The notes beneath the pieces are model-generated. The model made no database searches and had not been told where the DNA came from. It was given only the letters and a program-made list of their open reading frames with translations. The translations under genes and the position numbers were made by a program. From NCBI RefSeq assembly GCF_003704095.1, contig NW_020847627.1, positions 124,001 through 188,000 of the forward strand: a DNA stretch of 64,000 nucleotides. Direction: 5' to 3'. Positions 7,420 through 50,634 of the stretch are shown here, in pieces. The stretch's first letter is position 1; every line of letters starts with the position of its first letter. The stretch is from Pocillopora damicornis (lineage: Eukaryota).

Positions 7420-8391
7420 TCACCTTAATTGCAGGGATTCAAATAGCGCAGTCCTTTTCCGTTTCAGCGATCCAAGAAGAGTTCTAGTGAATTTTGGTAT
7501 TCTTATGGAGTATACGATTGGATTGGCAAAGCTGTTACTATAATGCAACAGCTTTGTGAAAGCGAAGACTTCATAAGGAATGTGAGATGACTCCCAAGTA
7601 TCACTTAAGAAAACAACGATGTTAAGAATGTAGAAAGGTATCCAGGTTAAAACGAAAACAAGTGTTATAATTAAAAGGGTTGTGACGAGTTGTTTCTCTT
7701 GAGCACTTCGCTTCAGTTGGTCAAGTTCTTCCTTATATCTGCTCTCCCGCTTTGGTTTCTCTCTCTTGTGATAGGAAACATTAGCCCATACAAGCACATA
7801 TGCCACACAAATGACCAAAAGTGATGAGAATATGAAGAAAATAATAAAATAGAAGAAAATTCTGAACTTGAACACTTCGAATCCGTTCATAAAATACAAC
7901 ACAGCTACAAACAAAGACAACATCCATACGACTGCTATGAGCTGGTGGTAGGTTTTTTTGGAGGTAAGACGATGTCTTAGAGGACACATCACTGCATACA
8001 GTCGCTCCAGAGCGATTACTGTCAGAGCAAAGATTGAAGCAAACGCTGTGAAAATGTCAATGGCCTTATACGCAATATATGTCCCTTTCACATTTGTTTT
8101 CCAGTAGGATGTTAACTGATGAATATAAAGTGGAACTGCAAATGTGCCAACCATGAGGTCTGCAATAGCTAACGTTACAAGAAAGTAGCTGGCACGCATG
8201 CGTAGAAGTTTCCTTTTAGTGAAGACTGCGATGGTCAGGCAATTGCCAACGATGATAGCTATTGCCACCAATGCGAGTGCTACACACCACGTGACCTGCT
8301 CAGACATGGGCATGGCGCCATTCATAGTTGGTGTTCCCTGGGTTGAATTGAAGTCGTAGCTGTTAGAGCTTTTATTCATGGTCCTGTTCAT
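7420..8391 (-). CDS. Class A (rhodopsin-like) orphan GPCR 1, 323 aa, D3.32/K7.39 group
   Basis: Seven hydrophobic segments; GN (TM1), LAIADL (TM2), IALERLY (TM3), TWIP (TM6), NSFANPIVY (TM7); N-terminal sequons NRT/NKS/NST; acceptor ttttctttgcag 15 nt upstream of the ATG. Confidence 0.95.
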   Translation of the reverse strand: MNRTMNKSSNSYDFNSTQGTPTMNGAMPMSEQVTWCVALALVAIAIIVGNCLTIAVFTKRKLLRMRASYFLVTLAIADLMVGTFAVPLYIHQLTSYWKTNVKGTYIAYKAIDIFTAFASIFALTVIALERLYAVMCPLRHRLTSKKTYHQLIAVVWMLSLFVAVLYFMNGFEVFKFRIFFYFIIFFIFSSLLVICVAYVLVWANVSYHKREKPKRESRYKEELDQLKRSAQEKQLVTTLLIITLVFVLTWIPFYILNIVVFLSDTWESSHIPYEVFAFTKLLHYSNSFANPIVYSIRIPKFTRTLLGSLKRKRTALFESLQLR

Positions 8392-20250: not shown

Positions 20251-21491
20251 GTAAAACGAACAGTGTGGTTCACTTTTGTTAATAGTTTGTTGAGGATGAT
20301 ATTCGGGGCAATTTCACAATAAACCGGGAGAAAATAGGACGTTTTCACTACGTAAAGTCAAATTACGTACGTATAATAATTGTGAACTAAACTGTCTTTT
20401 AAAAATACAGAATCTTGAGCTGAAAGGATCCCAACAACTTTCACACTTGGCACTTATGTGAACATACTCTAATAAGCATAAATTTGTTTCACCAAAGAAA
20501 AAGGGAGGAGAAATCTTTCCCAGTTTTTAGAATTTAAATAATTTTTTTCTTTTCAATTATTTATTCTTCGATCGGAAACATAAGCAAAGAGCATGGTGGC
20601 AGTTTGGTCATTTATTTTAGTGAACCTGCTGTGCTCATGATTACCTAACACAAGCAGCTGATTATATGTAACAAATTATAGAAAGGATTTCTAAATCAAT
20701 TAGAACACGAAGTCTTCGATTTTTATGTAATTTAGAATAATTAAATAAATTTTATCCCTCGGCACATCCAGCAAAAGAAATCCTAAATTAATTTTTGCCT
20801 AATAACTTTTGTGGGTTTGACATCCCTGTTGTCAATTATTTGGTTGTAATCAGCATATCGAGATTAAAAGAAAATTACAAAAATCCCCCCAAAAAATTGC
20901 AGAAAGGGTTCAAAGCCCCCTATAAAACTATTTTTCCTTTTAGAAGATGTTTTGTATAATAATGTAAATTGCTCTTGTGGAGTGCGTCAGTGAAAAAATG
21001 TTGTGTAACTTATTCTTATTTGTATTCAAAATCATAATTCAAATCATTCGTTTTCTTTTCATAGAGTTAGGTTTCAGTAAGGTTAAAAATTACATCAGTA
21101 AAGACGAAAAATAAACTCGTTAAATCCACTGCTACTTTTCTCTAGTTTTGTATTAACGTTTTGTGTTTTGTAACTTTATGATTTGTTGTCAACCGTACTT
21201 GACATCCCGTAACTTTTAAACGAAGTCACCGCCAGGTAAAATTGTTGAATAACGCGAGTTAAAAACATAGCTGGAGGCTTCCTTTACGGAGACAAAATGC
21301 TGAATGCAATTAAATAATAAAAAGGGAACACTGAACTCCGGTGGTTTTGAGTTGCAGGCTCATGTAACTAAAATTACGAGTGTTCTAATGACACAGAAGC
21401 GCTGTCCCGGTGACTTCCCGCCTCGATTAAAATATTTAATCTTGCCCGGGATGATAAATAATAGTATACCTGTTCTCTGGTTTTAGATACA

Positions 21492-22445
21492 ATGTTTCAT
21501 GCAGCGGATTATCATCAAACAGACGCTGAAACAATTGCCTGGATTGTGACGTTAGCTGTTGTGGGTGCCTTAGCAATTGTCATAAACCTCTTGACACTGT
21601 ACACGTTTCTCTCAGCTACAGCGCTCAGATCTCGTAAGCATGTAATGATCATGAACCTCGCTGCGGCTGACGCTTTGTTCGGAGTCACTGGAATACCAGT
21701 TTACCTAGTTTATCTAATTCGACCACAGTTGACTTTGTTTTACGTATGGGTGATGGCGAGCAGGTTCTGCAAAGTAGCTTCACTTTTTACTGTCGGTGTC
21801 ATCGCAGTGGAAAGGATGCATGCCATTGTATGTCCTCTGCGGCACAAAACTCTCTCAAGGCTGGTCTTCAACATCACCATCGCATCAATTTGGATTTGTG
21901 CATCTGCATTAACAGTGAGCGGGTTGGTTGTGCTTTTTCGTAACGTTGACATTATAACCTTTCTTTCACTTGCCTCTGTATTTACTCCCGTTTTGACTAT
22001 TACTGTGGTGTTAGTCATTGGTTCGTGTTACATCTTCATTTGGGTCTCCTACAAGCGTCGAAGATTTCATGCGATCAATCCTTCAACCATTCGGGAACGT
22101 TCGTTGGCTCTCACGCTACTACTGGTCAGTGGTGCCTTCCTAGTCACGTGGTGTCCTCCCTTACTATATCTATCAGTTATTCCGAATTGCATAGACTGCA
22201 TCCAGCCTAATATACAAATCTTAGACTGGTTTGTATTGGTATTTGGAATTCAGTGTCTGGTTAACCCTGCCATTTATTGCTATCGACTGCCTCTGTTTAA
22301 AGTCAGTTTGAAAGCGGTTATCAAAAGAGTGTTTGTGAAGTGTTTCCATCCGTGTTGCAATACGGCACCCAAAAACTCCTCAATTCGTCCCGGTGACCAA
22401 AAGGTTCAGGAACTACAAAAACAGCCAAAGGTTGAGTGTAATTGA
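21492..22445 (+). CDS. Class A orphan GPCR 2, 317 aa (328 aa with upstream exon), K3.36 group
   Basis: 7TM; NLAAADAL, IAVERMHA, TWCPP, ECL3 CIDC, QCLVNPAIYCYRLP; acceptor ggttttag 5 nt before the ATG. Confidence 0.95.
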   Translation: MFHAADYHQTDAETIAWIVTLAVVGALAIVINLLTLYTFLSATALRSRKHVMIMNLAAADALFGVTGIPVYLVYLIRPQLTLFYVWVMASRFCKVASLFTVGVIAVERMHAIVCPLRHKTLSRLVFNITIASIWICASALTVSGLVVLFRNVDIITFLSLASVFTPVLTITVVLVIGSCYIFIWVSYKRRRFHAINPSTIRERSLALTLLLVSGAFLVTWCPPLLYLSVIPNCIDCIQPNIQILDWFVLVFGIQCLVNPAIYCYRLPLFKVSLKAVIKRVFVKCFHPCCNTAPKNSSIRPGDQKVQELQKQPKVECN

Positions 22446-25228: not shown

Positions 25229-26227
25229 ATGGATTCACACGAAGCAGAGGAGAATCTTGATTTGGAATCGTCATCGTGGAAGGTTTGGTGTTCAATTTAT
25301 GGAATATTAAGTTTCTTCATCATCGTCGTCAACACTTTGGCGCTGTTCACTTTCATAAAGACTCCATCGCTCAAGTGTCGAAAACACATCATGGTCATCA
25401 ATCTTGTTGTCGCTGATCTCAGTTATGGAGCCTTGGGATTACCTACATTTATTTACTACGCATTCAAGCCAACATTAATCTCCTTTAACGTCTCAACAGT
25501 TCTTACCTCTTTTTCAAAATTGGTTTGTCTTTTCAGCGTTACTGCGATTGCCATGGATCGAATGTATTCCGTTGTTTGGCCAATACATCATAAAGTTATC
25601 AGCATTAATGTTTACAAATGTGCCGTCATGGCTGTTTGGATTGTTTCTGCTGGAGTGGCCACATTTGAGATGTATAATCGGGGTACATTTAGCAAAAAGC
25701 CCAAAACTTTTATCCCTGTGTTATTAATCGCATTACTGGTAGCAGGTATAGTAACTATTGGTTGCTATGTGTGTATTTGGTTTAAAGCTAGACGCAGAAG
25801 GAAGAGAACAACCACCAAACAGGATAGAAACTTGGTTTTTACTCTGTTACTAGTAACCGGAGTGTTTATGGTCACTTGGGGAATTCCTATCAGTTTTCTG
25901 TCAGTCTCCAGAATGTGCAAAAAATGTTATCAATTTTCTGCTGTGGCTTTTAAATGCATGCAGCTGCTTTTTGCATTACAATCTTTGATCAACCCAATTA
26001 TTTATTGCTTTCGACTGCCAACGTTCAAAATAAGTTTAAAAATGAGATTACAAGAGTTGAAAAGTTCAGGCCGAGGCAATGCGCCAAGAAGATCAAGTAA
26101 GGTGACTGCTAAACCTGAATTGTGGAGGACCTCGGTAATTAAAGAAACGCCGAAACAGCCAGTAAGAACTGAGGGGGAGGCGGCACAACTAACACGCACT
26201 GAGCCTAAGAGAGATCGAAATTTGTAA
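25229..26227 (+). CDS. Class A orphan GPCR 3, 332 aa, K3.36 group
   Basis: 7TM; NLVVADL, IAMDRMYS, TWGIP, ECL3 CKKC, QSLINPIIYCFRLP; acceptor ctttacag 20 nt before the ATG. Confidence 0.95.
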   Translation: MDSHEAEENLDLESSSWKVWCSIYGILSFFIIVVNTLALFTFIKTPSLKCRKHIMVINLVVADLSYGALGLPTFIYYAFKPTLISFNVSTVLTSFSKLVCLFSVTAIAMDRMYSVVWPIHHKVISINVYKCAVMAVWIVSAGVATFEMYNRGTFSKKPKTFIPVLLIALLVAGIVTIGCYVCIWFKARRRRKRTTTKQDRNLVFTLLLVTGVFMVTWGIPISFLSVSRMCKKCYQFSAVAFKCMQLLFALQSLINPIIYCFRLPTFKISLKMRLQELKSSGRGNAPRRSSKVTAKPELWRTSVIKETPKQPVRTEGEAAQLTRTEPKRDRNL

Positions 26228-31190: not shown

Positions 31191-31463
31191 AAACAACCCC
31201 TTCAAAACTTACTTCCTGCATCATATCTATTTAACACAGTTATTTAACACTCGATACACGAGTCAGAACAATGTTTATTCGTTTATACGCATATGAGCAA
31301 CTGGCCGATTCGATTACGATTTGCACCGGGAAATGTTCCAGTTTTTTTTCTCTCAGTCTGGAATTTGCATATTGTATGCTAAGGCTTTTGTTCATTTGCA
31401 CTTAGTCCTTTTATTTATTTCTTTCCTACCATGATTCATTCATAGAAATCTGAACAATCATCA

Positions 31464-32423
31464 ATGGATATTCGCCAAGTAAAAGAGATTGTTCAAACGT
31501 TATCAACTGGAACTTTACGGGCTTGGACCGGAGTTTATGCTGTTGAAAGTTTCATCATCGTCTTTGTCAACTCCTTGTCACTGTATACTTTTATCAAGAC
31601 TCCGTCCCTCAAGACACGAAAGCACATGATGGTTGTCAATCTCGCAGTCGCTGATCTCATTTTTGGAGCCCTCGGAATATCGTCTCTTATTTACCTGATA
31701 TTTAAACCAACAATTACTTCCGTTTATGTGTTAAATGCGTCGTACACGTTTCCGAAAGCAGCATGCCTTTTTACTCTGGGTGTGATTGCAGTGGAACGAA
31801 TGCATGCAGTCGTCTGGCCCTTACGTCACAAAGTTATGAGTGGTCGTGTCCACAAAATTGCTCTCGTGGGAATTTGGATACTGTCCGGCATCGTGACTGC
31901 ATTGGAATTGTACAATACGGATGCATTTGGCGAATCTGTTAGATTTGTCTTTTTCCTGCCAATGACAATTTTTGGTGTAATTAGCATAACAATTGTTTGT
32001 TACGTGTGCATTTGGATAAAAGTTAAACGCAGACGACAGAGCGTGCACGGTGCAGCGACCCGAAAGGATAAATCATTGGTGCACACGTTGCTGCTTATTA
32101 CAGGGGTTTTTGTGCTCATGTGGGCACTTCCTATAACTTATTTTTCAGCTTCAAAGATCTGTGACAGCTGTTACAAGATTACATATCCGCTTCTTTTCCA
32201 CCTTTTTAACGCGTTGTTAGCGCTACAATCATTTCTCAACCCAATAATTTATTGCTTCAGGCTGCCTATGTTTAGGATGAGTTTGAAAGCGAGGCTGCGA
32301 GAGATGAAACATTCAGTTTGTTTTCTGCAGAGGCTTTCGTTAGAGTCAAGAAAGAGAGGAACACGAACTGAATTGCCAACCTCAGTGGTAAGAGAAAATC
32401 AAGGCAGCCTGGAAGTCGTTTGA
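31464..32423 (+). CDS. Class A orphan GPCR 4, 319 aa, K3.36 group
   Basis: 7TM; NLAVADL, IAVERMHA, MWALP, ECL3 CDSC, QSFLNPIIYCFRLP; acceptor ttcatag 18 nt before the ATG. Confidence 0.95.
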   Translation: MDIRQVKEIVQTLSTGTLRAWTGVYAVESFIIVFVNSLSLYTFIKTPSLKTRKHMMVVNLAVADLIFGALGISSLIYLIFKPTITSVYVLNASYTFPKAACLFTLGVIAVERMHAVVWPLRHKVMSGRVHKIALVGIWILSGIVTALELYNTDAFGESVRFVFFLPMTIFGVISITIVCYVCIWIKVKRRRQSVHGAATRKDKSLVHTLLLITGVFVLMWALPITYFSASKICDSCYKITYPLLFHLFNALLALQSFLNPIIYCFRLPMFRMSLKARLREMKHSVCFLQRLSLESRKRGTRTELPTSVVRENQGSLEVV

Positions 32424-34675: not shown

Positions 34676-35226
34676 TTTATTAAACATTGGTTGCCATTTG
34701 TATTTACATATATGAAAACTTCAGGAAGCTAGAGTTCTGAGATGTAAAGAGCAAAATAAAAAAAACTTCTTCTTGAAATTAACTTATCAGAAAATGTTTC
34801 GTTTAATTTTCAGAATTAATACGGTAAGGAACTCATTTTCGCGTACGCGGTTTAGCATATGTAATTAGCAGAAGTTTAGTACAGAATTTCCGATGTAACC
34901 TCTCAGCTGTTTTTGCAAGCTGTCATGCCAAAACAAGATTACCTGTTTTTTTGAAATGAGTTTTTAATCAAAATACAGCGTTGGCATCAGCAAAGCAATA
35001 ACTTGTTTACCTGCCTGAAAAGCTGCTTTATTATCCATAATAATCATCAAGTCGCATTTGCCAGCCAAGGTCTGTGAATTGCTGCTAGATTGACATCATA
35101 TGGTAGAAAAAAGGTGCGAAAACAAAACAAAGCGGATTCACCGCATTTAAGACTAGCACACTGTGAAACTGCATTGAAAGAGTAACGTTGCCAACATCGA
35201 TATCCCTAGCTTTGGCTAGTGAAGAG

Positions 35227-36192
35227 ATGGCAGCAAACTTCACGCACTCTAAATTAGCACTATGGACGACAGCGTTCGTGGTAGAAAGTGTAGCAATCAT
35301 TGTGGGAAATGCTGTCACTATCGCCATATTTTGGGAGAAAAGATCCACTTTGAATAGGACCCGGTTCTTTTTGATAAACCTTTCCGTTGCTGATTTGTTC
35401 ATTGGTGTCGGAGTAATGGAGGATATTGTATGTTTCGCTCTTCGCTACAAAAATGACACCTGCAAGGTGACTCAAAAAACAAATGTAGCTGACGCCATTT
35501 TTGGAATGGCTTCGTTGTCATTCTTAGTCGTAATCGCTTTAGAAAGGCTTTACGCCGTTACCTTTCCTTTACGACACCGCACGATAGCTACGAAAACGTA
35601 CTTCTTCGTTATTGGAACAACCTGGACCGTCTCAGCCATGCTGATTATAATAACGTATCCCATTTTTTCGTACTTTGCAGTTTATATCTTACTTCAACCT
35701 ATCGTAATATCAACGTACACGGCAACATGCTTAATAATCATTACAACGGCATATCTTATAATATTCATTTATTCTAAAAAGAGAGTTCCAAGGGTCGAGT
35801 TAAATCGGGAACAGAACCATAATAAACTGACCAAAACTCTTTTCATAGTTACATTATTGTCGCTGATTACGTGGACTCCGCATGGAATTGCAAATGTGTT
35901 GCGCTTCACAACATATGATGTAGAAGGAGAAGTCTACCTTGCAGGTCAATTTTGTCGATTGGCAAATTCTTATGTAAACCCGATCGTATACTGTCTCCAA
36001 ATGCCGGAATTTCGAGAGAGACTTATCAATCTTTTTGCGTTCAAACGACGCAATAAAGATGCGTCGGGTCTACAGAATCAATTAGCAATTGCGGAGTCGA
36101 TGGATCCGGATTGTCCAGTCTTGCTCTCGTTTACCCGGTTGGATGCAACCCAGGAATTTAAGACCACTATGATTCTGGTATCAAAAATGTAA
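35227..36192 (+). CDS. Class A orphan GPCR 5, 321 aa from first ATG (MAANFTHS...), D3.32/R7.42
   Basis: 7TM; VGN, NLSVADL, IALERLYA, TWTP, NSYVNPIVY. The ORF-track start at 35188 is TTG; the first ATG is 35227 (gagATGg), followed by an NFT sequon. Confidence 0.93.
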   Translation: MAANFTHSKLALWTTAFVVESVAIIVGNAVTIAIFWEKRSTLNRTRFFLINLSVADLFIGVGVMEDIVCFALRYKNDTCKVTQKTNVADAIFGMASLSFLVVIALERLYAVTFPLRHRTIATKTYFFVIGTTWTVSAMLIIITYPIFSYFAVYILLQPIVISTYTATCLIIITTAYLIIFIYSKKRVPRVELNREQNHNKLTKTLFIVTLLSLITWTPHGIANVLRFTTYDVEGEVYLAGQFCRLANSYVNPIVYCLQMPEFRERLINLFAFKRRNKDASGLQNQLAIAESMDPDCPVLLSFTRLDATQEFKTTMILVSKM

Positions 36193-36317
36193 TTTTTCGG
36201 CTAACTCTGCTTAAAATCAGACCTTCGAGGTATGACATATTTTTTTTGTTGACGATGCCTGCAATTTTGTTGGATGATGTCGCAACCCACGTGAACACTT
36301 CTTTCAAGCTCTTATTC

Positions 36318-36710
36318 CAAGTGCGCAAACATCAAGTGTATTCCTCGTTCTAAAAGCCCTATGCGAAGTGCAAAAGCAACAGAAGTATTCCTCTTTCTAA
36401 AAGTACCGCGCCAAGTGCGTAAACATTAATTGTATTCCTCGTTCTAAAAGCCCCGCGCGAAGTGTAAAAGCAACAAGAGTATTCCTATTTCTACAAGTAC
36501 CGCGCCAAGGGCATAAGCATCAAGTGTATTCCTCGTTCTAAAAGCACCGCGTTAAGTGCAAAAACAACAATAGTATTCCTCTTTCCAAAAGTACTGTGCC
36601 AAGTGCATAAACATCAAGTGTATTTCTAGTTTTAAAAGCCCCGCGCGAAGTGCAAAAGCAACAAGAGTATTCCTCTTTCTAAAAGTACCGCGCCAAGTGC
36701 AGAAAACAAT
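36318..36710. repeat. Minisatellite: 47-bp monomers alternating A/B (94-bp higher-order unit), 8 full monomers plus a partial one
   Basis: A = CAAGTGCGCAAACATCAAGTGTATTCCTCGTTCTAAAAGCCC..., B = GAAGTGCAAAAGCAACAAGAGTATTCCTCTTTCTAAAAGTACCGCGC; exact 47-bp spacing from 36318 to 36694. Confidence 0.95.
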
Positions 36711-37748: not shown

Positions 37749-37969
37749 GACTGTGAGTATATGAAAGTCGTATATGTGAATTGCGGATTGTGAAATGAAT
37801 AGGAAAGTGATCTTCCCAATAATGAACACTACTAAAACAGGAGTGAAAATATGGCCTGGAAATAACTCAGGCCTGTACGGGATTTTAACCCATGACCTCT
37901 ATCATACTGGTGCGGTGCTCTACAAACTGAGCTAACAAGCCAACTGTGAACTGGTCATTTTGTTGGTTC
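37749..37969 (-). mobile_element. tRNA-derived SINE
   Basis: Minus strand TAGCTCAGTTTGTAGAGCACCGCACC...GGGTTAAAATCCC (A-box, degenerate B-box), then an AGGCCTGA..TCAGGCC hairpin and tail. Confidence 0.7.
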
Positions 37970-38603
37970 TTACTAGACGAATTTCTCTTCTTACTTTTGC
38001 CTTATTTGACTGTCAAAGACAAATAACTTATCTTGTTTTCTAGAGTTCATTGCTGGATTCATTTATCCTTGTAGATCAGGAAAAAAATAAGAGCCTGTAG
38101 ATGTAACTTAAGTGTCTGTAAGTATCGAGGAATGTGGAGAAGAAGTTCTCCAGGTCACCAGGCCATGGGCGTCACTGAAACACAGTGAACTTCAAGTTCC
38201 AAAATTATCTTGGCAAAATAGCAACCATATCTAGCGGATCAGTTCAGAAATGCAAGATTTAGCGGCATTTCGAAGGCTTCTCAAGTAAAATACGCTAAGA
38301 AAGGATGGAACGGTATACACCATGCAAGACTGTTTTCCCTTCGGAGAGGGAAAGAGCAATTTTACGTTGCCTCTTTTGATCAAATTCCCGGTTTTGTCAT
38401 TTATTTGTTTCATCTAAGAGAGCTGTCGAATTTTCAGATGATAAAGTGATTTAACTCAAAATGGTTTAACTCTCATTCAGGTAGAAGGTCTTTTATGACC
38501 AGTTTCAGCTGTTTAACAAGTAACCTCCCACCACATTTCCACTGCATCTCAAAAGCACCAAGGAACAGAAATCCGGTCATTAGTTGGTCGACACTATCTT
38601 CAG

Positions 38604-39557
38604 TCAACCGAGGGGCTCATTGCTCGCACTTACTTTAATTACCGAGGAATTTTCAGGCAGTTTTGTTCCAGCTACCACTTTTCTGGATCTTATCGATCTT
38701 CTTGGTTTGATATGTAGGAAAGATTTTATTTCTTGCAACCTCGTTTTCAGGCCCATTTTAAACAAAGGCATTCGAAAGCAATAAATTATTGGGTTCACCA
38801 AAGATTGTACCGCAAGTAGGAGCGTTGCACACATGAAATACCAACCAGAAAAGTGGTCACAACTTTTGCACAACAGGAAGATTGGCTTACAGGTCATGGG
38901 AATTCCCCACGTAACCAAGAAAACTCCCGTGACCAGCAATAGAGTTAGGGCCAATGATCTGTCTTGTCTGGCTGCTGTGCCGATTCTGCACTGTCCTCTG
39001 CGTCGAAGAGTTATCCAAATGCGTAAATAACAAGTAGATGTAATTATAACTATCACAAACAGCGCAGCTGGCTGCAAAAAAGGAGAAAACTTGGAAACCT
39101 TATCTCGCCGATAAATAGAAAGAGTGGTGTTGCCCATCGAAAAGATCCAGATTGCCAGAACAGCTACTTTGTAAGCTTTGCTATTCATCAGTTTGTGACG
39201 TATCGGCCAAACCACTGAATACATCCTCTCCACTGCAATCACACTAAGAGTAAACAGACAAGCGGATTTCGTGAACGTGATCATTACACTTGACACAATA
39301 ATAGAGATAGGCGTTGGATTGAATATGGAGAAGATGAGTGATGGTATTCCCAGGAGTCCATAAATAAGATCAGCAACAGCAAGATTGACAACCATCATGT
39401 GTTTCCGATTCCTGAGCAACGGATTCTTAATGAAAGTATGCAGCAACAAGGTGTTAACTAGCACGACAATGAAACTCATTGTAGCGGAAACTGTACCCCA
39501 AAACTTCCAAATAGATGATCCCAATCCAAAAATCTCTGCAGCTCGGTAGTAATCCAT
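38604..39557 (-). CDS. Class A orphan GPCR 6, 317 aa, K3.36 group (inverted paralogue of GPCR3/4)
   Basis: 7TM; RKHMMVVNLAVADL, IAVERMYS, TWGIP, ECL3 CKSC, QSLVNPIIYCFRMP; acceptor cttttgtgacag 15 nt before the ATG. Confidence 0.95.
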   Translation of the reverse strand: MDYYRAAEIFGLGSSIWKFWGTVSATMSFIVVLVNTLLLHTFIKNPLLRNRKHMMVVNLAVADLIYGLLGIPSLIFSIFNPTPISIIVSSVMITFTKSACLFTLSVIAVERMYSVVWPIRHKLMNSKAYKVAVLAIWIFSMGNTTLSIYRRDKVSKFSPFLQPAALFVIVIITSTCYLRIWITLRRRGQCRIGTAARQDRSLALTLLLVTGVFLVTWGIPMTCKPIFLLCKSCDHFSGWYFMCATLLLAVQSLVNPIIYCFRMPLFKMGLKTRLQEIKSFLHIKPRRSIRSRKVVAGTKLPENSSVIKVSASNEPLG

Positions 39558-39929
39558 GATTCTATTGGATTTCTGTCACAAAAGATAAAACCTTGTCTTG
39601 GTTTTTTTTTAAGTACGTACATTGAAACGATGTTTGCTGCAAATATCATGAAATCATTCAAACAAAGGGTTTTTTGATAATTTCCCCAGCTTATCACCCT
39701 ATTTAAAAAATTGACATCTCTTCATTTCGCATCGTTTTCTCGAAATGAAAAAATGCCCTAATGAAAGGTTGTTAAAGCGGACAAAGAGTTAAAAAAGAGG
39801 GAAATTAACAACCATTTTCGAGGGGTTTTAAATCTTCTGAGTACCATTCAACAAAGTACCAATTTATTTCCCATTCTTCTACCATTCAATACGTTGTAAT
39901 TCTATGGCAAAGATAGTCACTGCAATTAA

Positions 39930-40178: not shown

Positions 40179-42166
40179 TCTTAGTCTTAGCCCTTAGCCC
40201 TTCCAAGCCTTAGTCCTTGGAAATTTTGATTTTTTAATTCCTCAGCTCCCATTTAATTAAAGCGAACCTTACTTTTTTTTGCTTATCATACAGACATGAG
40301 AAAATACGAATATGATCTTAAGCATTACCCTAAACAACACGATTAATGTGATGACCGAAAGTTTTCTACCCTGAACTAAAACCGTATTTTTCAAAAGTTT
40401 TCACACATCACGAGGTATCCACTTTGAAGTCATCATTTAATTTAAGGTAATACAACTTTTCGCTAATCGTTCTAAGTCGATAAGTTCAATCCATGATTTC
40501 AATCCCGAACTGCTTATATAATGACCACATAAAATTAATTTTTACTGGATATTAAAGGTAAGAAATGTGCGGCAAACCTTGTTTAGTTTGTATTCCTCTG
40601 ACAGATCAAAATGTAGTAAACAACCTCTCTAAGACTAAGCAGAACAGGCTTGATTTCCATTAAGGTCAGTGATAATTATATTGGAGCAAGAGATTCTAAT
40701 CTTTTGATTGGTGGCAAAGTGTAATAGAGGAGTGATTTACGTAAACGATTGTTATTATATTCTGAATTGCAGATTCACTCTAAACATTTCAAAGTCTAAC
40801 TTTTTGTGGGAGGGGGGGAGGGAGGGGAGGGAGAGAGAAGAGAGTTAGTGAGTTTAGCCAAACCCCGCTTAATTTCACAACACAAGTTAAACACCGTTTA
40901 AATGAAAAGCACTGATCATTTCGCACAAGAATACAGCTATAGCTTTATTGCTTTTCAGAACAATTTAGTGTTTCGCCATGATTTCAAAATCAAATCGGAC
41001 ATCTCAACTGTTCGAAGTATGAAAAAATGATCAAAAACTGAATTTGAACCAATATTGTTTTTGTCCTTCATATTTTATTTTGAACCCCAAAAGAAGCAAG
41101 ATTTAGAAATATACACTAAAAATGTTTTAAATAAGGGAACAAAGACCAGCAATTTCACTGATTATCTATGAATGATTTTTAATTTCAGCTGTTCTTGAGA
41201 AATCGTATTGTTCTATTTAAATGGTTTGTGATAGACGCGTTTGAGCAATCATTAAAATTCATAAATTTTGCTGAGATGAGTTTGAAAAAAGGCGCCGTTG
41301 AGAGTATGAAATCAATTTGTCGAGGAAACAAATATGCCAGTGCTTCAAAAAACAGCGGGACATCTTGAAGAACGACTGCGGAATTAAAAAGGTAGTAAAG
41401 AAGTTGGTTAAACAGTTCTTGTGGCGAGTCCAGGTCACCACTTAAACGACGCCAGCCTCACAGGGCAATTACAAAGCTTAAAATTTGGTCGGGTTAGGAG
41501 GTGAAAACTTTGCTCTTCTTGATCTTAGCTCTGATTGATGGGAAGCAACGCCGACGCAAGTTCGGGCTCAGCAACTTAAACCGCAAGCTGTACCTTTTTA
41601 TCAATTATCCTTTGATAAGTGAACATCGTTATGAACCGTTATTCGGCCACATTTATTGGTAAAATTAAGCATCCATCAGACATGTCAAAAGCTTACGTTT
41701 GAATTGAAGAATCGAGAAGAATTATATTTGCAAGACTCACTCTGCAGTCAAGCCAAAAGTTTGGCTCAAGTAAAGTTTAGTTTTACGATTGAAAACTGTC
41801 TTCTGACCGAGGCAGATAAGATCATTTTTAGTGTTCAAAAATGTGTTATGATTGGTTATATTGTTGCTTTTTTTTAAGGGCGCACACTCAGCTCTTTTGA
41901 ATGTTTCTATTAGACATGCTGTGCTGAAGCACTTACTTATATTAAAAAAGAGAATATAAGGAAACCTCAACATTGCAAAGTCCTCACAGGTTTTTCGTGC
42001 CTGTGATCTTGTTACAAACGTGAATTATAACCAAGTAATATATCAGTCTCAATACTTGCTTATCGCTATATGCTGATGCCGCTGAGGACATTCGCCTCGA
42101 GACCTGTTCGAAAACCTTAGCGTTTCAGTAAAACGCGTTTGAGACATTGTAAAAGATCAGTTACAA

Positions 42167-43078
42167 TTAATTTTTTCTGGTGTAGCGATATCTCGGTATT
42201 CCAAGACAGTCATAAGTAAGGATTTTCTTTACAGTTCTATGAAGTGAACTGATGGTATAGAAATAAAATCCGAGCATTAAAATTGATTTCAGATACAAAA
42301 CGATTCTAACACTGTACAGAAACATTATGGAAACAGGGACACAAAAGTTACAAAATTTATAATATGTAAAACCTGTATAAGGTAAGGCCCATAAAACTAC
42401 ATAAACAGCACATGATGCTATCACTGATTTTACAATTTTTTTGTCTTCGTCGCGATCAGTTTCACGCACTTTGCCATACAGCTGAGAAACCATTACCACT
42501 GTGCACGTGAAGATAAGGAAGAGGGCGGTTATAGCGAGTAGACCAACTGCTAAGTAGAAGTAAACGAAGAATGAAACGTAATCCATTAGACATGCAACAT
42601 TAAAGGCCACAGCACCACCAGCAATAAACGTCGAGCCCGCGATGACGAGATAAAAATTGCGCTTTTTAGGATAACCTGCGTACCGAGTCGGGGACCTGAA
42701 TGTTGAACGTAATGCTTGTACTGATAGAGCCACGAGAATGCCGGCTGAGCCAAACCCAGAGGCACAGTCAGATGCTTCATAGATGTAAAAGCTGTAACTT
42801 GGCCAGTTAGTCATGTTGTACAAGAAGGTTGGTATCGATGCCAGTCCCACCACAAGATCAGCGCAGGCGAGGTAGCCCAGGAAGTATCTCTGATGGTATA
42901 GTAGCGATTGATTTGTAATAAAGGCTCGCACCATGAGGTAGTTAACGGTCAAAATGGCGAGACACACAATGGAATAACACACCACTAGGATTATCAGCTG
43001 GTATGTTTCCATGCCTGGATCCTGGTTAAAGGTGCTATTGACAGATCGCAAATTTGGGGTGACTCGTGTGACGTTCAT
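42167..43078 (-). CDS. Atypical class A-like 7TM receptor 7, 303 aa, lacking E/DRY and NPxxY
   Basis: Intact ORF with 7 hydrophobic segments. VN (TM1), LACADLVVG (TM2), D3.32, WALP and ECL3 CNFC are retained; TM3 end is SVQALR and TM7 end is KSILMLGFY. Acceptor cgtttcag 1 nt before the ATG. Confidence 0.88.
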   Translation of the reverse strand: MNVTRVTPNLRSVNSTFNQDPGMETYQLIILVVCYSIVCLAILTVNYLMVRAFITNQSLLYHQRYFLGYLACADLVVGLASIPTFLYNMTNWPSYSFYIYEASDCASGFGSAGILVALSVQALRSTFRSPTRYAGYPKKRNFYLVIAGSTFIAGGAVAFNVACLMDYVSFFVYFYLAVGLLAITALFLIFTCTVVMVSQLYGKVRETDRDEDKKIVKSVIASCAVYVVLWALPYTGFTYYKFCNFCVPVSIMFLYSVRIVLYLKSILMLGFYFYTISSLHRTVKKILTYDCLGIPRYRYTRKN

Positions 43079-46000
43079 ACTGAAACGATAGATACACAGT
43101 AAAGAATAAATTAACTTTTAAGAGGTGGACTTCTGAGGCCATTCGAGTCCGCAATCACCTTCTTGACCATATTCAACCCTAGGGGACGAAAAGATGAGCA
43201 AGATTGAAGTATTTATCATATATCCAATGAACTGCCTAAATAAACACGAACTATTTAAATTACACCAGAGGCGTTCCCTTTTGACTCTAATCGGTTCAAC
43301 TTTAAAAATGCTAATAGTTTTTGCAGCAACAATCTCTCTTGAAAACTTTCTACCATTTCCAGGTTAGGTTCCCTTAGCATGAAACGAGTAAACGGGCGAT
43401 CAATGAACGGAGGAAGTGATAAGGAGTAGATGGATTGATAGCCCAACAACTGAATAAATGGATAAATGATCGATAAATAATTGTAGCTGCTCATAAGTCA
43501 GTAGATGACTCAATGGAAGAAAACGATTCAAAAGCAGTTGACTAACATGGATAAACAAATGTCCTTTTTTTTCTTAGATGCTGGTCGAATTCGGAATGAG
43601 CAGTATGGATTAAGTTGTGTTGCTAAAGGTTTTTCCTCAGCGAGAAGCATGATTTTGTTTTATTTTTTGCGAATATTTTCTGGCTCTATTCTCCAAATAA
43701 AGATATCGAGGAAAAGAAATGAATGACCGATTCTCTTGAAAATTAATTGCTATTACCTTTTTCTGGATTATTTGAAAGGAAAATTGTCAGAAGCTCGATG
43801 AGCCCAGTCAGAAATGGTTTGTGACTTCCTTTAACACTTGAAAACCAACAACATCAATTTCAGCCTGTCAGATGCAAATATAAGTATCAAATAAAATTGT
43901 AAGGGAGTGTTTGATCATTAAAAACAAACCTTATTGCAATGAATTTCTTATGTGGAACATTCGCGAGAAAAGTTGAAAGATGAAAGGAGAACCATGCCGA
44001 GATGTCATTTTATTATTTTTGCTAATAAATATTTCAAAAGAGACTCTAAAAGATTGCAAGTAAGCTTGACGAAAAAAATTGTTTTGAAGCAAGCTTAATT
44101 AAAAAACATAGAAAACTTCCTGTCCTAATAACAAACAAAATGAAAAATTATTTCCCCTCAACTAGCGCAATTGAATGTCATAGTCTCGAAAATAATGTAA
44201 AACTTTACTAATTGAACGTCCAAAGAGCATCATACAGGCCATGATTTATGTGAAAGTGCATAATTCAAGATCCCACTTACAGCTGTATAGCTCTCATTGT
44301 GATGCATAGTGGCTTTGGGTATTTTCATTGGAGGGTGAACTTAGACGCTTAATTGAATTTTAGACCATGAAATCAAGATGATTCCAAAAGTTAAATTTTC
44401 TGTCTTGAGTAGTGACTGTTAGAATACAAATATGTATATATCGTACTTTTTTTTTAAGTAAATAGCGCTTTCAACTCCTTTCACATTAAGATTGGCACCT
44501 GACGGGATTCCTTTTTGAAAATTCATTGATCACTGGCAGAAGACAACAGCAGGATTCAACGCTTTTCAAAAATCTTTTCAAGACGCTGATAAAAAATTTA
44601 TTGTGTGCATAGGTTAGATTGATTGGTTGAATTGAAATGAGTCTGGCGTATAGTTTTTGAGAAGCAAATACTCTTATGTCCATGCACCTGAAAGCTTATT
44701 GCTAAGATCATCAAGAAATCAGATAAAACTAGTCTGGCTTGAATCCCTCGCTGTATCGAACAATTAAATTTTTATGGATCATAATTGGGATTTGACCCAA
44801 ACAATTTTAATTCTGTAAAGCCAATATAATAAAGAATTAATTAGGCAGGTAATCATTTTCGTTTGCTCTCAGGTCACAAAAACGTACCAGAGTAAATATG
44901 GAATACTCGAGAAAAGTTGCTTATAATACCAGATATATGATCTACCAAAGTTTCTTGCTCACATTGAAAAACCGAAAAAAAAATCAAAATTGCAAATCTG
45001 TCGATGGATGTGGAGTTTTGAATACCATAAATCGAACGATCATTCACAACTATTTACTTTTCTCCACGGTATTCGAAATATCTTTCGGTTGTATTGACTG
45101 TATTAGAAGCCTATGCTCACGGTACTTTTCCCCCGTGACTTCGTGAGAACTGCACTTCATATCCTTTAATCCAAAGGTTTTAAATTCTCAGAATCGGTCT
45201 CGGGAAACTCTGAATGTTTCAAGATTTGTTAATCGATCTTGCGTGCAAAATTACTACTTTGAGTGTCTCGGTTTCTTGGCGAGTTTGAGTTCCCATTCTA
45301 GACCCCTATAAATCATTCAATAAGTCGGAAATATCTAGTGATATAGCACGTACTTGAATTTTGGTCGATTAGATTCGCTTTCCAGTGTAGTGTTTCCTGT
45401 TTTCTTTTTCTTGATCCTTCGAAGAGTTCAAGCTTCCTTGCTGCTTCTTGTGTCACGCTGGAGCATCGCCAAATGATGAACTTCAAGGATTAAGTAGTCT
45501 TGCTAATTTACATTGACGCTGGCGATGTTTATTTGCATACACTGTGACCAAGCTTCGACTTTTGTTTTCAACCCCACGGTATTTATACAATCCTTTGTCT
45601 TAAGTATCTCAAGCAGTTTTGGTTGGTCACCTGAATGTAATCAGATCTGATTTACAATTATTATTGAAAACCGGTCTAATTTTTCAACGGAATTTTTCGC
45701 TGTCTTTATGTAGTTTTGTTTACAGTTAATTATTACTGTTTTTACGTACACCGTACCGAAAATTTTTGGCAGGGTTTTCCCGTTTCTTCGCTGGTTTGTG
45801 TTTAATATTTCGAAAACCTAGATTATATTATGCGTTCTTAACTTCAGTCAAATCTGAGAGTTCGGAAGGCATGGAGCGTACACCATAATTCCTTCTAGAA
45901 CATTCTCTCTTTTACCATTCAGCACGGCACAAATTATTTTGTTTCATTTAGAGTTTTTTGTTTTCTGGTAAGAATATATTACCCTGGATTTAAAAATTTC

Positions 46001-47402
46001 AAAGTTGACTTAACCCTTAGAAGCTTGCACACCGAAAATTTTTATATCCTGCAATCTTCTGAATTCATAATTTCTGAGATATCTGAGGTAATGGTATATT
46101 CCAGCTGGGATTTCAACAGAGAGCGATCAAGAGTGAAATTTTTGGAGAAAAACAATTGATGTAAGTGGATGATTTTAACCAAAGCGCAGCTTTGAATTAA
46201 GAAAAATCAGCGTGAGTGATGTATCATCGAGACAATCTGTAAACGACTTCCGTTAGTGACGGCTGGATTCGAAGTAAATCAACCACAGTCTAGAACCACT
46301 AAAGGTTTTTTTCATTTAGACAAAACCGGAACTGGAAACCAGCCGCCGAACCTTTCAAGGTTGGAGGCATGTTTTCTTTCCCCATCTCCAGCCAATCATT
46401 CTTCGTTCCAGTGGAATTTTTAGATGCTTAGGCTAATAGGGGAGTGATTTTTGATTCAATAACAGCAAATCTCGGCATTGCACGAGCCCAATTACCTTAC
46501 GAGCCCTTACGTACCTAGAATATACTAATACTCTAAGCGTGCTTTCGAAGTGTGTTATAAAAACTCAGGCAAATTGCACAATATTTTTGCAAGCCTACTT
46601 TTATAAAATTACAGTTGCTTAATGACTTAAGAAATCTCTTCAACAAGACACCATGTAACACCTGCACCAGGTAGGCCATGAAGTTCATGAAGTTCTGGTC
46701 CGGTGGTCAGATTGTTAAGGTTGTAAATCACACACTGACTTTGCTTTTCATCAGGAAGAGAAAGAATTAGCTGCAATGGCGAAAAAGTTGTACTAATTGT
46801 TTTATCGTACAACGCAGTTCTCGAGCCATTCGACTAAACTTCTGTCATTATGGTTAAGGAGCAACATGCTGAGTAGTAGAGTTGGGATCATCTTTCTCTT
46901 TTGGGAGATACCTCTCACTGGCCTATTGCCAGGTATCAACTTCACATTTCACCGATAATGACGGAAAAAGGAAATCAAAGTGATACTATGGTGAACTCGT
47001 AGATAAACTGTGAAAAATATCATGTAAACGATGGTATTCTGTTGAATCTTGTACCGTTAACTTGAGTCGAATCAAAACGTTAGACCAGGAAGTGGCAGTT
47101 GTAGAGAGGTGGCCGTAAGTGAAGGGGCGACCTTGAAATTAGTGTCGTAGTTAGCGAAAGATTCCACGTCGCCTGGCATATGTTTAGGAAAAAAGGCAGC
47201 ATATGAGGCGCACAGATGCTCGAAAGCACCACGTACGTCAGAGCAGTGATCTAACAATGAACAGACACACGGCAACATTAAATCTATTTTTGATTTATAT
47301 AACAAAGAAACACGAGAAGTTGATAAGGACGTCCATTGTGTCTGCCCTCCGATATTTCATTAGTAAGAATCAATCAAAAAACTTATGAATTCAGCTTATC
47401 AT

Positions 47403-47597
47403 TTGACCCTTTAATTATCAAGATTTGATTATTAATGCTCTCCTCCAGCTGCGACACATTTTCTTATAAATCGGTTACGAGAATTTGGCGTTCAATCAAG
47501 ATAAGTTTGCGTAATCTCACTACCTGTTTGCTGGATAATCTATAGATACTGTAGGGAGAAGTTACAAGTTAATCACCTCTGGGACTTAAAGGTGTAA
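47403..47597 (+). mobile_element. TTAA-type MITE, related subfamily, degenerate
   Basis: TTGACCCTTT...AAAGGTGTAA ends and internal similarity (GAGAATTTG, ATCAAGA, GGAGAA...TCACCTCTGGG) to 19324-19521. Confidence 0.5.
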
Positions 47598-48258
47598 TTA
47601 TGGAAGGACAGCGATTGGCGAAAAAATCCAGGTCATGCCAACATCCATTTTCTTAGCCCGTTGGACGAATTAAAGGACGCATTAGAGAAAAAAAACTAGG
47701 CTATGGAACTATAATATGCATAATCAATATTATTTAAAAAAAAGGAAACATCACCTACGTACATTGTAATCTTATTTTTAATTCAGATAAGTCAAAGTAA
47801 TATTTCATCATAACAGTACCATTGCACTCCATTATTACCGTTACGTTGTCGAATTCAATAAATTTACAAAGTTAAAATCGTATATACTATAATTCAATTC
47901 TAATACATTTCAAAAAATTGAAGCATACCTTGACACTCATGTTTCAAACTTATTTCGAAGATAGAGGAAACAGTATGCTGATCCTCCCCTTGATCAAAAC
48001 AGCTGAGCGGTGAAATTTATGATGACAAATTAATTACTCCAAAAATATCATTAAACATATAAATTTTAAAGCTTTGCAACCAAAAATTGCTTAATATGTC
48101 TTTTTCCTCCTCGGTCTAAAACTTGGAGGGTAGACAAATTCTCAGCACTAACATGTGTTAGAATGATATTTTAGCTACATTGCTACGGCTATGTACATTA
48201 AGCCATGTATATTTTGATTTCACTTAGCGAGGCCAACCGTCTAACTTCCCGTGTACAT

Positions 48259-48468
48259 TTAGCCTTAGACCCCTAAGAGTGACCAGCATCTAAATTCTCC
48301 TCGCTGTAATACTCCTGAATCATATACTGAGGTCACGAGAATAAAGGAAATGATCTCCAACTAGAGTAGCTCTTGATTGATAAACAAATTCTCCTTGTCA
48401 GCACCTTAGGAAGTGTATAGTGACCAGAAAGGAGGATATGCATACTGATGTCAGGGTGAAAAGGATAA
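48259..48468 (-). mobile_element. TTAA-type MITE, same family as 19324-19521
   Basis: Reverse-complement homology to 19324-19521 over about 200 bp. Confidence 0.7.
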
Positions 48469-49623
48469 AAGAAGTATTAATTCTAATCTCTCCCTGAATC
48501 TCTATTCTCGCCCGCATAAACCGTGGACTCGACCAAGTCTTTCAAATTAATCCGTTAGATTTCAAAGGACGAGATTCTACACCTGACTAATGAAAGAAAG
48601 GTCAGTTTTGTTCCAAAAAAAATGACCTAATCAATTCACTCCTAGAGTGGAACCTCCTTGAACTATTATAGTGCAGTTATACCTTTGTTTTAAATGTAAA
48701 CAAATTCCAAATTGTATAATAAGTGCAAATTATTTTCATTAACTGAGTACGTCCACAAGGACAAAATACCGTAGAGGATAGACATAAAACTTAGGAAAAG
48801 ACGTCTTTGATTTGGAGCTGCTGAAGGTACATGTAAATTGAAGGAACGCTTGCCTCACAATCATTTCTTGGTAGCGAAAGACCAAACATTTACTTTAGTT
48901 TGCACACCTTCTTGCTAAAGACCCAAAGGAACTATTCAGGGTAATTTGAGACGGAAAATTCTTGTACGAAACCGAAATGCCGGTAAGCGTCCACACAAAA
49001 ACGTACCTTCAAGAATGAAGAATGTTGTATTATGCTACTCGATAAATTTTTTGGACATCTTTTGTGAATGAAGAACCAATCAAAATCCACACCTTTTGGA
49101 GGAAAAGTTTCTTGATTATAAAGGCTGTAATTCTACCTCGAGGTTTCTTTCTTCAACAAAAAGCAAAGTAAAAAAAAGCAAGACTTAAGAACGAAAAAGT
49201 CGGCATTGGAATTTGCGAACTTATTTCACTGCTTCTTTTTTTTTTTTAGAAATGCATAGTGTACAGTGTCCGCTTTGAACGGAACACCACTGTCTCTAAC
49301 TCAGCTCGAGAGTAAGGCAAACCCCATCAAAGTTGTCAAACCCGCAAATTAAAAAGAGACTACAAAAAGATTTCAAACATTGTAAGGCCTCGGTTTTGAG
49401 CGATGATCCCTGTGGAAGATTGATTATATAGATTGTGGAGACTTTGGGATAGCCCAGTTGTGCGCATGTACAAAGATCTCGACACAATGGTATCGCCCGC
49501 GTGCCTTGGCGAAGTCTTGGATAGTAATCCTTTAAGATACAAATCATTACATTTCATCCCTCAGGATAGTAACTGAAACGATACTGCTCCTATAGAACAG
49601 TCTTTCAAGATCACACTACAATG

Positions 49624-50634
49624 TTACAGCGCACACTCACAGTTGCCGTTTGCCTCTGTTTCACTAGATCGTAACGTGCTTGCTCTTCGGCGTCGCTCAG
49701 ATAACATCCTCGAAGTAGCTCGGGTCGATGCCCCATATAAAACTTTCTTTCCAAATAAAGCTAGAAGACCTCGCCTGAAGTCAGGCATCTTGAAGGTGTA
49801 GATAATAGGATTGATGAACGAGTTCATATATTGCATCAATTTAGTGAGGAAAACGAGAGTCAGAATGGATAAAGTGCATCCATTTTCACACAACGTTGGA
49901 ATGAAGATGTTGATGCCTTGGAATGGGAACCAAGTCAAGATGAAAATAGCTGACACAAGAAAAAGTGTTGTTGCTAGTTTCTTGTCTTTTTCCAACGATT
50001 TCTTCGTTTTCTCGTGTATCCTCTGGTTAACCTTGAACCAAATGCCGATATAAGCCAAGCAAATCACCACCACGCAAATGAAGAAAGATACGAGCATAAG
50101 GTACAAGAATATGTTGCTTGAGATCATCTTCTCGTTCACGAGCACTTTTACACACACAAGCACGCCCGCCAGAATCCAGATCATGCTTATCAAGATAAAA
50201 TACAGACAACTTGGTGTAGTTCGATGCCAGTTTGGTAGAACCACTGAGTATAAACGTTCCAATGCAATAGTTGTTAGTGCAAAGATTGAAGCAAATCCTG
50301 AAAAAATGTCCAATAATCTATGAAGTACGTTGATCCACGCGCTATCCAATTCTTCACCTCTTGTGTAAAGAACGAGAGTATGTACAAATATCGGTAATGA
50401 TATTGTACCAACCATCATATCTGCAATCGCCAGGCACAGCAAAAAGTAGTTTGTACGTTTCCGTAGCAACTTGCTCCGCGTGAATACGACTATAGCGAGG
50501 GTATTGCTCATCACAATGAGCATATCGACAATACCAAACGCAAAACACCATCCTATCACCTCCGTGTGTGTGAAGAATGCCTGTCTTGCCCGGCTCTGGT
50601 TATTCACATGGCCGTTGGAATCGTTAACCATCAT
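49624..50634 (-). CDS. Class A orphan GPCR 8, 336 aa, D3.32/K7.39 group
   Basis: 7TM; LAIADMMVG, LDIFSGFASIFALTTIALERLYS, TWFP, ECL3 CENGC, NSFINPIIY; sequons NDS/NQS; acceptor ttttctttcattag 12 nt before the ATG. TM3 is near-identical to GPCR1. Confidence 0.95.
   Translation of the reverse strand: MMVNDSNGHVNNQSRARQAFFTHTEVIGWCFAFGIVDMLIVMSNTLAIVVFTRSKLLRKRTNYFLLCLAIADMMVGTISLPIFVHTLVLYTRGEELDSAWINVLHRLLDIFSGFASIFALTTIALERLYSVVLPNWHRTTPSCLYFILISMIWILAGVLVCVKVLVNEKMISSNIFLYLMLVSFFICVVVICLAYIGIWFKVNQRIHEKTKKSLEKDKKLATTLFLVSAIFILTWFPFQGINIFIPTLCENGCTLSILTLVFLTKLMQYMNSFINPIIYTFKMPDFRRGLLALFGKKVLYGASTRATSRMLSERRRRASTLRSSETEANGNCECAL

Follow-up and report, generated by a model that had tools for sequence, protein, structure and literature searches.

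A 303-amino acid class A (rhodopsin-like) G-protein-coupled receptor (GPCR) of the coral Pocillopora damicornis likely works, by analogy with known decoy receptors, as an atypical receptor that binds a ligand without signalling. Its gene is the seventh of nine single-ORF class A GPCR genes in a 64-kb window (64,000 nt; assembly GCF_003704095.1, contig NW_020847627.1, positions 124,001–188,000 of the forward strand), the window being the whole stretch of DNA analysed here, in which all coordinates are given unless a locus is named. We propose a ligand-binding, G-protein-silent receptor that would be held inactive by a tethered sodium mimic, the lysine at position 7.45 bound to the aspartate at 2.50, and place the probability of this whole chain at roughly 45%; the narrower claim that the receptor lacks classical G-protein activation is, judging from its residue pattern, probable.

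The protein was matched by Pfam 7tm_1 at 31.8 bits, against a gathering score of 30.5 and 61–123 bits for the other eight receptors in the window, and AlphaFold2, run on a 12-sequence alignment, predicted seven helices followed by helix 8 (H277–291) with a mean pLDDT of 71, in keeping with the full-length receptor that the preliminary description had read from the intact ORF. By Foldseek the model reached a TM of about 0.6–0.7 to A2AR, beta1-AR, muscarinic and S1P receptors, the top solved-structure relatives found by HMM were aminergic and adenosine receptors, and the ESM Atlas matches were generic 7tm_1 clusters only. The class A core residues N1.50, D2.50, W6.48 and Y7.53 are each present in all 19 members of the clade to which the receptor belongs. 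The residue register was fixed two ways, by alignment with the window paralogues and, independently, by aligning the protein to muscarinic M3 through an HMM, and generic numbers other than these anchors were assigned from them. In this register the receptor carries N46 (1.50), D74 (2.50), D104 (3.32), R258 (7.39), Y262 (7.43), the CxxC of ECL3 and sequons at N2 and N14, all of which had been described as retained; this stands for every one of them except R7.39, which is a clade-specific change from the K7.39 of the relatives (27/32). The register also bears on the TM7 lysine K264, which, being invariant in the clade and found in corals, whose opsins are unusual according to the available text on them, might be taken for the retinal-binding lysine of an opsin-like pigment. 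The retinal lysine of opsins (Lys296) occupies position 7.43, where the coral receptor has tyrosine, and K264, five residues ahead of P7.50, is aligned to N7.45 of M3; an opsin was rejected on this register as highly improbable, and none appeared among the 60 best solved-structure matches listed or among the Foldseek matches listed.

The coding sequence (42167..43078, minus strand) lies wholly inside the second exon, and its start methionine was lined up in 17/17 rows of alignment A2. The gene had been placed at 42167..43078, positions that hold for the coding sequence; the gene itself is larger: its first exon, which is non-coding, occupies 45354 and higher positions, and its 3′ UTR runs down to about 41134. 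A GT-AG intron in the 5′ UTR (43080..45353, minus strand) has its 3′ end one base before the ATG, and the corresponding joint, 43079/45354, was present in all four runs examined (three recorded as RNA and one guessed to be RNA, from 18 runs containing the stretch, six of them recorded as RNA), the run contigs having been picked for containing this gene. The first exon (45354..45545, minus strand, upper end approximate) is covered by contig pieces as far as 45458 in run X5, the end at 45545 having been inferred from a distance-to-end figure in run X1, and the 3′ UTR of about 1 kb (41134..42166, minus strand, lower end approximate) is joined to the ORF in single RNA contigs spanning 41134–43079 (X1) and 41151–43079 (X11). 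Run X11 differed from the window at 4 of 909 bases in the ORF, 3 of them silent, and at 13 of 1,016 bases in the UTR. The non-coding first exon is ~70–72% conserved in loci L001, L002 and L004, the splice donor of the intron is conserved in L001 and L004, and the region upstream of the gene (promoter) is also conserved in other loci.

The intron contains an AT-rich element (window 44755–44881, L001 1400–1526, L004 8242–8335) that is 79–80% conserved over 95–127 bases, compared with ~72% for coding sequence, and is likely a regulatory element; Rfam gave no match anywhere in 41000–49600, this element included. Close to the inferred transcription start, a near-invariant block at ~45500–45590 (minus strand), shared with L001 and L004, holds what we take to be an octamer-like motif beside a forkhead-like motif, and can also be read as an 11-codon upstream ORF whose stop position is identical in the window, L001 and L004.

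A word search with the protein returned 16 clusters at 47–100% identity, a full HMMER search gave two further clusters at 35% identity, one of them the Nematostella vectensis protein EDO49975.1/XP_032223463.1, and a search starting from this Nematostella protein added a third deep member, yielding a clade of 19 proteins, sixteen of which are close coral-type sequences and three deep. The named members of the receptor's own cluster are all Pocillopora, a Desmophyllum pertusum protein sits in one coral cluster of the clade, and all named near relatives are cnidarian. In an unrooted tree of 33 of 55 rows, from which near-copies and long and fragmentary rows had been dropped, a branch with support 100/100 separated the 11 clade members included from all other rows, and the stem leading to the clade was long. 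For all ten pairs of five DNA sequences (the window and four of five loci, L002 being a near-copy of L001), dN/dS was 0.12–0.24 by NG86 and 0.16–0.28 by YN00, with bootstrap upper limits ≤0.32 and the deeper pairs near saturation (dS > 1); the canonical neighbour receptor at 49624 gave 0.16 (NG86) and 0.21 (YN00) for the matching species pair. The gene is genuine, ancient and under selection, and is common to corals and sea anemones, whose lineages split several hundred million years ago. The low Pfam score and the long stem branch might suggest an artefact of assembly or a young pseudogene, a duplicate in decay, for which the preliminary description had named missing orthologues, a dN/dS near 1 or absent expression as the marks; this explanation was rejected on the intact frame, a dN/dS of 0.12–0.28, far below 1, in 10/10 pairs and spliced RNA in 4/4 runs, and with orthologues reaching Nematostella and the promoter and splice donor conserved it is scarcely credible.

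Four window receptors (21465–22445, 25229–26227, 31446–32423 and 38604–39575) fell on the same side as the clade of a branch with support 95/87, both groups being long-stemmed, and a grouping of the clade with the adjacent receptor at 49624 is still permitted in this unrooted tree (AU p 0.067); the view that the gene arose as a duplicate of that receptor is not favoured. The four receptors form one clade of their own (support 100/99), with Q7.45, a one-residue insertion in W6.48-x-x-P and the CxxC of ECL3, and have lost D3.32, K7.39 and Y7.43 and kept E/D-R and NPxxY.

To compare the activation switches, the 19 clade proteins were set against 34 canonical relatives, namely the eight window paralogues and 26 of 36 weaker HMMER matches (nine dropped on length and one as a near-copy); these rows are mostly paralogues and not a single orthogroup, and counts of 32–33 instead of 34 reflect rows that lack TM7. 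The sodium-pocket lysine K264 (7.45; 42287..42289, minus strand) is present in 19/19 clade members and 0/33 relatives, with both AAA and AAG codons in use, and N7.45, which it had been said to replace, occurs in 0/19. In both the paralogue and the M3 alignments Q121-A122 (3.49–3.50; 42713..42718, minus strand) stands in place of E/D-R, with L123 at 3.51, which agrees with the replacement of E/DR(Y) by QA(L) described earlier; the motif of the window neighbours is E/D-R-L/M-Y/H, not DRY as had been assumed. Arginine at 3.50 occurs in none of the clade members and in all 34 relatives, the clade residue being A, G, V, I, M or T, six alternatives as would be expected of a freed site. Two further losses and the short tail had gone unmentioned: C192 (5.58; 42503..42505, minus strand) takes the place of a tyrosine that is absent from 19/19 clade members and present in 31/33 relatives, and W4.50 is lost in 16/19, surviving only in the three deep members.

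The claim that both activation motifs are gone holds for R3.50 and was overstated for NPxxY. The receptor reads MLGFY at 7.49–7.53 (42263..42277, minus strand), most corals are MPIFY-like, Nematostella has SPIIY and two members have the full NPIIY, so that N7.49 is found in 2/19; P7.50 is absent from 9/33 canonical relatives as well, the wider cnidarian family often lacking it with N7.49 and Y7.53 retained. Because Y7.53 is present in 19/19 and P7.50 in 16/19 clade members, and two are NPIIY, MLGFY is a late and local decay, and the founding changes are the loss of R3.50 and Y5.58 and the replacement of N7.45 by lysine. S3.39 (16/19), S7.46 (17/19) and D2.50 (19/19) are kept, and a basic residue stands at 3.49 or 3.52 in 17/19 members, 3.52 being cysteine in L001 and L002.

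Positions 2.50, 3.39, 7.45 and 7.49 make up the sodium pocket, and activation begins when this pocket collapses (available text of PMC6954041). According to the same study, A2AR carrying N280(7x45)R had no agonist potency left and a reduced basal cAMP level, and this mutant does not appear in the list of those whose agonist binding was lost. A lysine mutant of the A2AR sodium pocket did lose agonist binding and is printed there as 'N284 7x45 K', N284 being elsewhere 7x49 (PMC6954041), and in M4 the mutation N7.49R is described as forming a salt bridge to D2.50, mimicking sodium and locking the inactive state (available text of PMC7055379). The silencing of A2AR by N7.45R agrees with the earlier statement that a basic residue beside D2.50 can stabilise the inactive state. 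In the coral receptor the predicted salt-bridge partner of K264 is D74 (2.50; 42857..42859, minus strand; 19/19), a contact deduced from the known sodium-pocket positions, and K264 would reach D74 as a permanent stand-in for the sodium ion. With the lysine in the place of sodium, the pocket would be unable to collapse and TM7 unable to move in. R3.50 touches Y5.58 and Gα in the active state, and C5L2, which has leucine at 3.50, is non-signalling and regains signalling in part when arginine is restored, as described in the portions of PMC3414077 available; with both R3.50 and Y5.58 missing from the coral receptor, the active-state lock and the main Gα contact could not form. Taking the A2AR, M4 and C5L2 precedents together with the residue pattern, we infer that the receptor is held inactive through K264–D74 and still binds its ligand.

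The ligand side of the receptor is strongly kept in the clade. Y100-E101-x-x-D104 (3.28, 3.29 and 3.32; 42767..42781, minus strand) is invariant at each named position, as are N88, W92-P93, R258 and Y262 (each 19/19), and the ECL3 motif C243-x-x-C246 (42341..42352, minus strand; 19/19) follows the one-residue W6.48-x-x-P insertion that is common to the receptors at 21465, 25229, 31446 and 38604. This invariant polar pocket (N2.64, Y3.28, E3.29, D3.32, R7.39, Y7.43 and the W-P of ECL1) would bind a ligand that is probably small and charged. Agreement between the clade and the canonical consensus falls from 66% in the core (13 positions) to 46% in the pocket (17 positions) and 13% on the G-protein face (17 positions), and the proposal that the ligand half is conserved and the G-protein face changed was upheld by conservation within the clade of 0.86 for the pocket versus 0.65 for the G-protein face (weighted difference 0.16, permutation p 0.013 with sequence weights). 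In the relatives the order is reversed, 0.50 versus 0.69, where divergence of the pocket is expected because the rows are mostly paralogues. The sole like-for-like control on this contrast is one species pair, the window versus L004, in which the extracellular half is identical at 76/108 positions in the 303-aa receptor versus 59/108 in the canonical neighbour (p 0.024), and the cytoplasmic half at 85/127 versus 97/125 (p 0.068, not significant).

The cytoplasmic half is itself under purifying selection (dN 0.04–0.31 versus dS 0.38–1.56), and since Y7.53 is invariant and the basic residue at 3.49 or 3.52 recurs, the cytoplasmic face presumably binds something. These same features, with P7.50 in 16/19 and NPIIY in two members, would also suit a receptor that activates G proteins in a non-canonical manner, K7.45 being a fixed allosteric brake or tuner that replaces sodium, and Y7.53 and the displaced basic residue at 3.49/3.52 supporting coupling; in the available text of the sources, EHV2 ORF74 (DTW, without R3.50) is constitutively Gi-active (PMC3414077) and V2R R3.50C/L is listed as constitutively active (PMC4814114). 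We consider such signalling an appreciable but minority possibility, given that the loss of R3.50 and Y5.58 and the change of N7.45 to lysine coincide in all 19 members, that merely 13% of G-protein-face positions match the canonical consensus, that the net charge of TM5-ICL3-TM6 falls from a median of +5 in the relatives to +1 in the clade, and that basic sodium-pocket residues silence A2AR and M4 in the mutant studies, as far as their text is available. A third option, by analogy with HCMV US27, described in the accessible part of PMC8782444 as constitutively inactive and trapping Gi as a sink, would be an inactive receptor that traps Gi.

How a silent receptor would handle its ligand depends on its tail. 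The segment at 42170..42223 (minus strand) comprises the helix 8 end, with I286, T288 and C291 invariant, and a short tail almost devoid of Ser/Thr: a median of 26 residues follow Y7.53 in the clade versus 58 in the relatives, some of which are also short-tailed, and Ser/Thr after helix 8 number 0–1 in 19/19 clade members versus a median of 8 in the relatives. With only 5–16 residues past a probably palmitoylated cysteine, the tail would recruit arrestin poorly, and a poorly recruiting receptor would act on its ligand at the surface, by holding, buffering or presenting it, instead of clearing it by arrestin-driven uptake. Scavengers driven by arrestin (of the ACKR2, ACKR3 or ACKR4 type) carry a Ser/Thr-rich C-tail for kinase and arrestin. 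The loss of the G-protein switches with the pocket kept would suit such a scavenger, or a receptor that signals through arrestin only, and for CCR5 R3.50N the available text of PMC3414077 reports arrestin-mediated endocytosis with G-protein coupling lost. The scavenger role put forward in the preliminary description is, in this arrestin-driven sense, weakened by the tail, and with a very short third loop (0–5 Ser/Thr) and an inactive-state lock that would presumably disfavour arrestin too, it is quite improbable; the better fit is a receptor that holds or presents its ligand or serves as a partner.

A partner role would draw on the residues that set the clade apart. Y1.51, R1.55 and T288 (each 19/19 versus 0/34 in the relatives), F7.54 (18/19 versus 0/34) and C291 (19/19 versus 3/34) are concentrated in helix 8 and the cytoplasmic end of TM1; TM1 and helix 8 form a common GPCR dimer surface, and the receptor might use this surface as a silent partner (co-receptor, chaperone or inhibitor) of another membrane protein. 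A possible partner is the canonical neighbour receptor (49624..50634, minus strand; ERLY, NPIIY, D3.32/K7.39), which served as a control and is syntenic in L004, where its orthologue lies ~7 kb upstream of the orthologue of the 303-aa receptor in the same orientation, and which is transcribed in the same four runs, spliced separately at the joint 50646/52284. We regard this role as unlikely, given that the genes of a tandem array are linked in any case, that the synteny comes from one locus, the sole one of five long enough, that the TM1/helix-8 residues may just pack against each other and that a pure chaperone leaves the invariant polar pocket unexplained. Should a ligand be shared with another window receptor, the retention of D3.32, K7.39 and Y7.43 would make the receptors at 7420, 49624 and 62006 the candidates; all of these residues are missing from the receptors at 21465, 25229, 31446 and 38604. 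For service to neighbours, as put forward in the preliminary description, pocket residues and synteny likewise favour the D3.32/K7.39 receptors over GPCR2/3/4/6, the set it had named for co-expression. In the wider cnidarian family (P0076–P0111 and the window receptors at 7420, 49624 and 62006), D3.32 (29/34) is paired with K7.39 (27/32), and the two may be ion-paired inside the ligand pocket.

The surroundings of the two genes contain several further features. The public Pocillopora meandrina gene model P0020 (CAH3117621.1, 687 aa) fuses the neighbour (49624–50634) to the 303-aa receptor (42167–45458) through an open frame of the latter's non-coding first exon; this double receptor is probably a prediction artefact, as the RNA contigs are separate transcripts with no such joint among those listed. 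In all four RNA runs, contig depth was very high and loose ends and short joints were numerous at 48260–48470, where the neighbour's transcript has its 3′ end, and at 37860–37970; both stretches are probably dispersed repeats. A tandem array of ~8 copies of a 47-base unit occupies 36317–36709, just downstream of the receptor at 35167–36192, and in L004 a 219-residue open frame (638–1297, minus strand) just upstream of the neighbour's orthologue resembles what we take to be a GIY-YIG-type mobile-element fragment.

No published description of the clade was found in the open-access literature by member accession, by 'K7.45' or by cnidarian atypical, decoy or DRY-lacking receptors; the motifs of the Nematostella protein were absent from the filtered cluster file of the Nematostella deorphanisation study of Thiel et al. 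2024 (PMC11087051), as far as that source was available, and the accessible portions of 10.1101/587576, 10.1101/2025.04.18.649542 and PMC12401545 contain nothing on it. We tentatively suggest that cnidarians evolved a hard-wired-off receptor (K7.45–D2.50), a silent ligand sink or subunit, independently of and long before the vertebrate ACKRs. Those non-signalling class A receptors that have been studied well come from vertebrates or viruses, and basic residues that mimic sodium are known as laboratory tools. If the suggestion is right, decoy or silent-partner regulation of GPCRs arose separately in cnidarians before the coral/anemone split, the clade shows in nature what structural biologists engineer as inactivating mutations, and a non-bilaterian decoy receptor becomes accessible to Nematostella genetics. 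The receptor would also be a test case for the sodium-pocket model, in which three back-substitutions would be expected to bring coupling back provided the model holds, and its locked inactive state may ease structure and ligand discovery for a large orphan family of cnidarian receptors; if it instead signals, it would be a rare case of natural activation without the canonical switches.

Among known systems, the nearest relatives are the cnidarian D3.32/K7.39/Y7.43 class A receptors, at 21–28% identity over full-length matches, whose database names (adenosine-A3-like, somatostatin-2, S1P2-like) are automatic similarity labels; they share with the clade D3.32, Y7.43, a basic residue at 7.39 and often the ECL3 cysteines, but carry R3.50 in all 34 examined and K7.45 in none. 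The vertebrate receptors C5aR2 (C5L2) and ACKR1 (DARC) resemble the coral clade in having no positive charge at 3.50, according to the text available on them, and the altered DRY-type motif of the atypical receptors is found in the clade as well, with arginine at 3.50 in 0/19. We know of no lysine at 7.45 in C5aR2 or ACKR1. Both are described as binding ligand without G-protein coupling in the available portions of PMC3414077, and the coral receptor would be their predicted counterpart only. It does not share their descent, given its cnidarian relatives, its aminergic and adenosine structure matches and the vertebrate-specific ACKR groups (the chemokine receptor groups are vertebrate-specific in the accessible part of PMC10792014); unlike C5aR2 and ACKR1, it belongs with cnidarian receptors, and its sequence and fold are like those of aminergic, adenosine and lipid receptors.

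The viral receptors EHV2 ORF74 (DTW), EBV BILF1 (EKT) and HCMV US27 are likewise class A GPCRs with altered switch motifs; in the available text on them, ORF74 and BILF1 signal, BILF1 depending on its lysine at 3.50, and US27 retains R3.50 with its pocket blocked, the opposite of the coral pattern. A likeness to the placement of K7.45 is seen in the mutants A2AR N7.45R and N7.49K, M4 N7.49R and M2 S3.39R, in each of which, as far as the accessible reports describe, a basic side chain beside D2.50 abolished signalling. The M4 and M2 mutant structures, by the same text, show the salt bridge, whereas the K264–D74 bridge of the coral receptor is a prediction; these sodium mimics are laboratory-made, whereas the lysine at 7.45 is natural and fixed across corals and an anemone.
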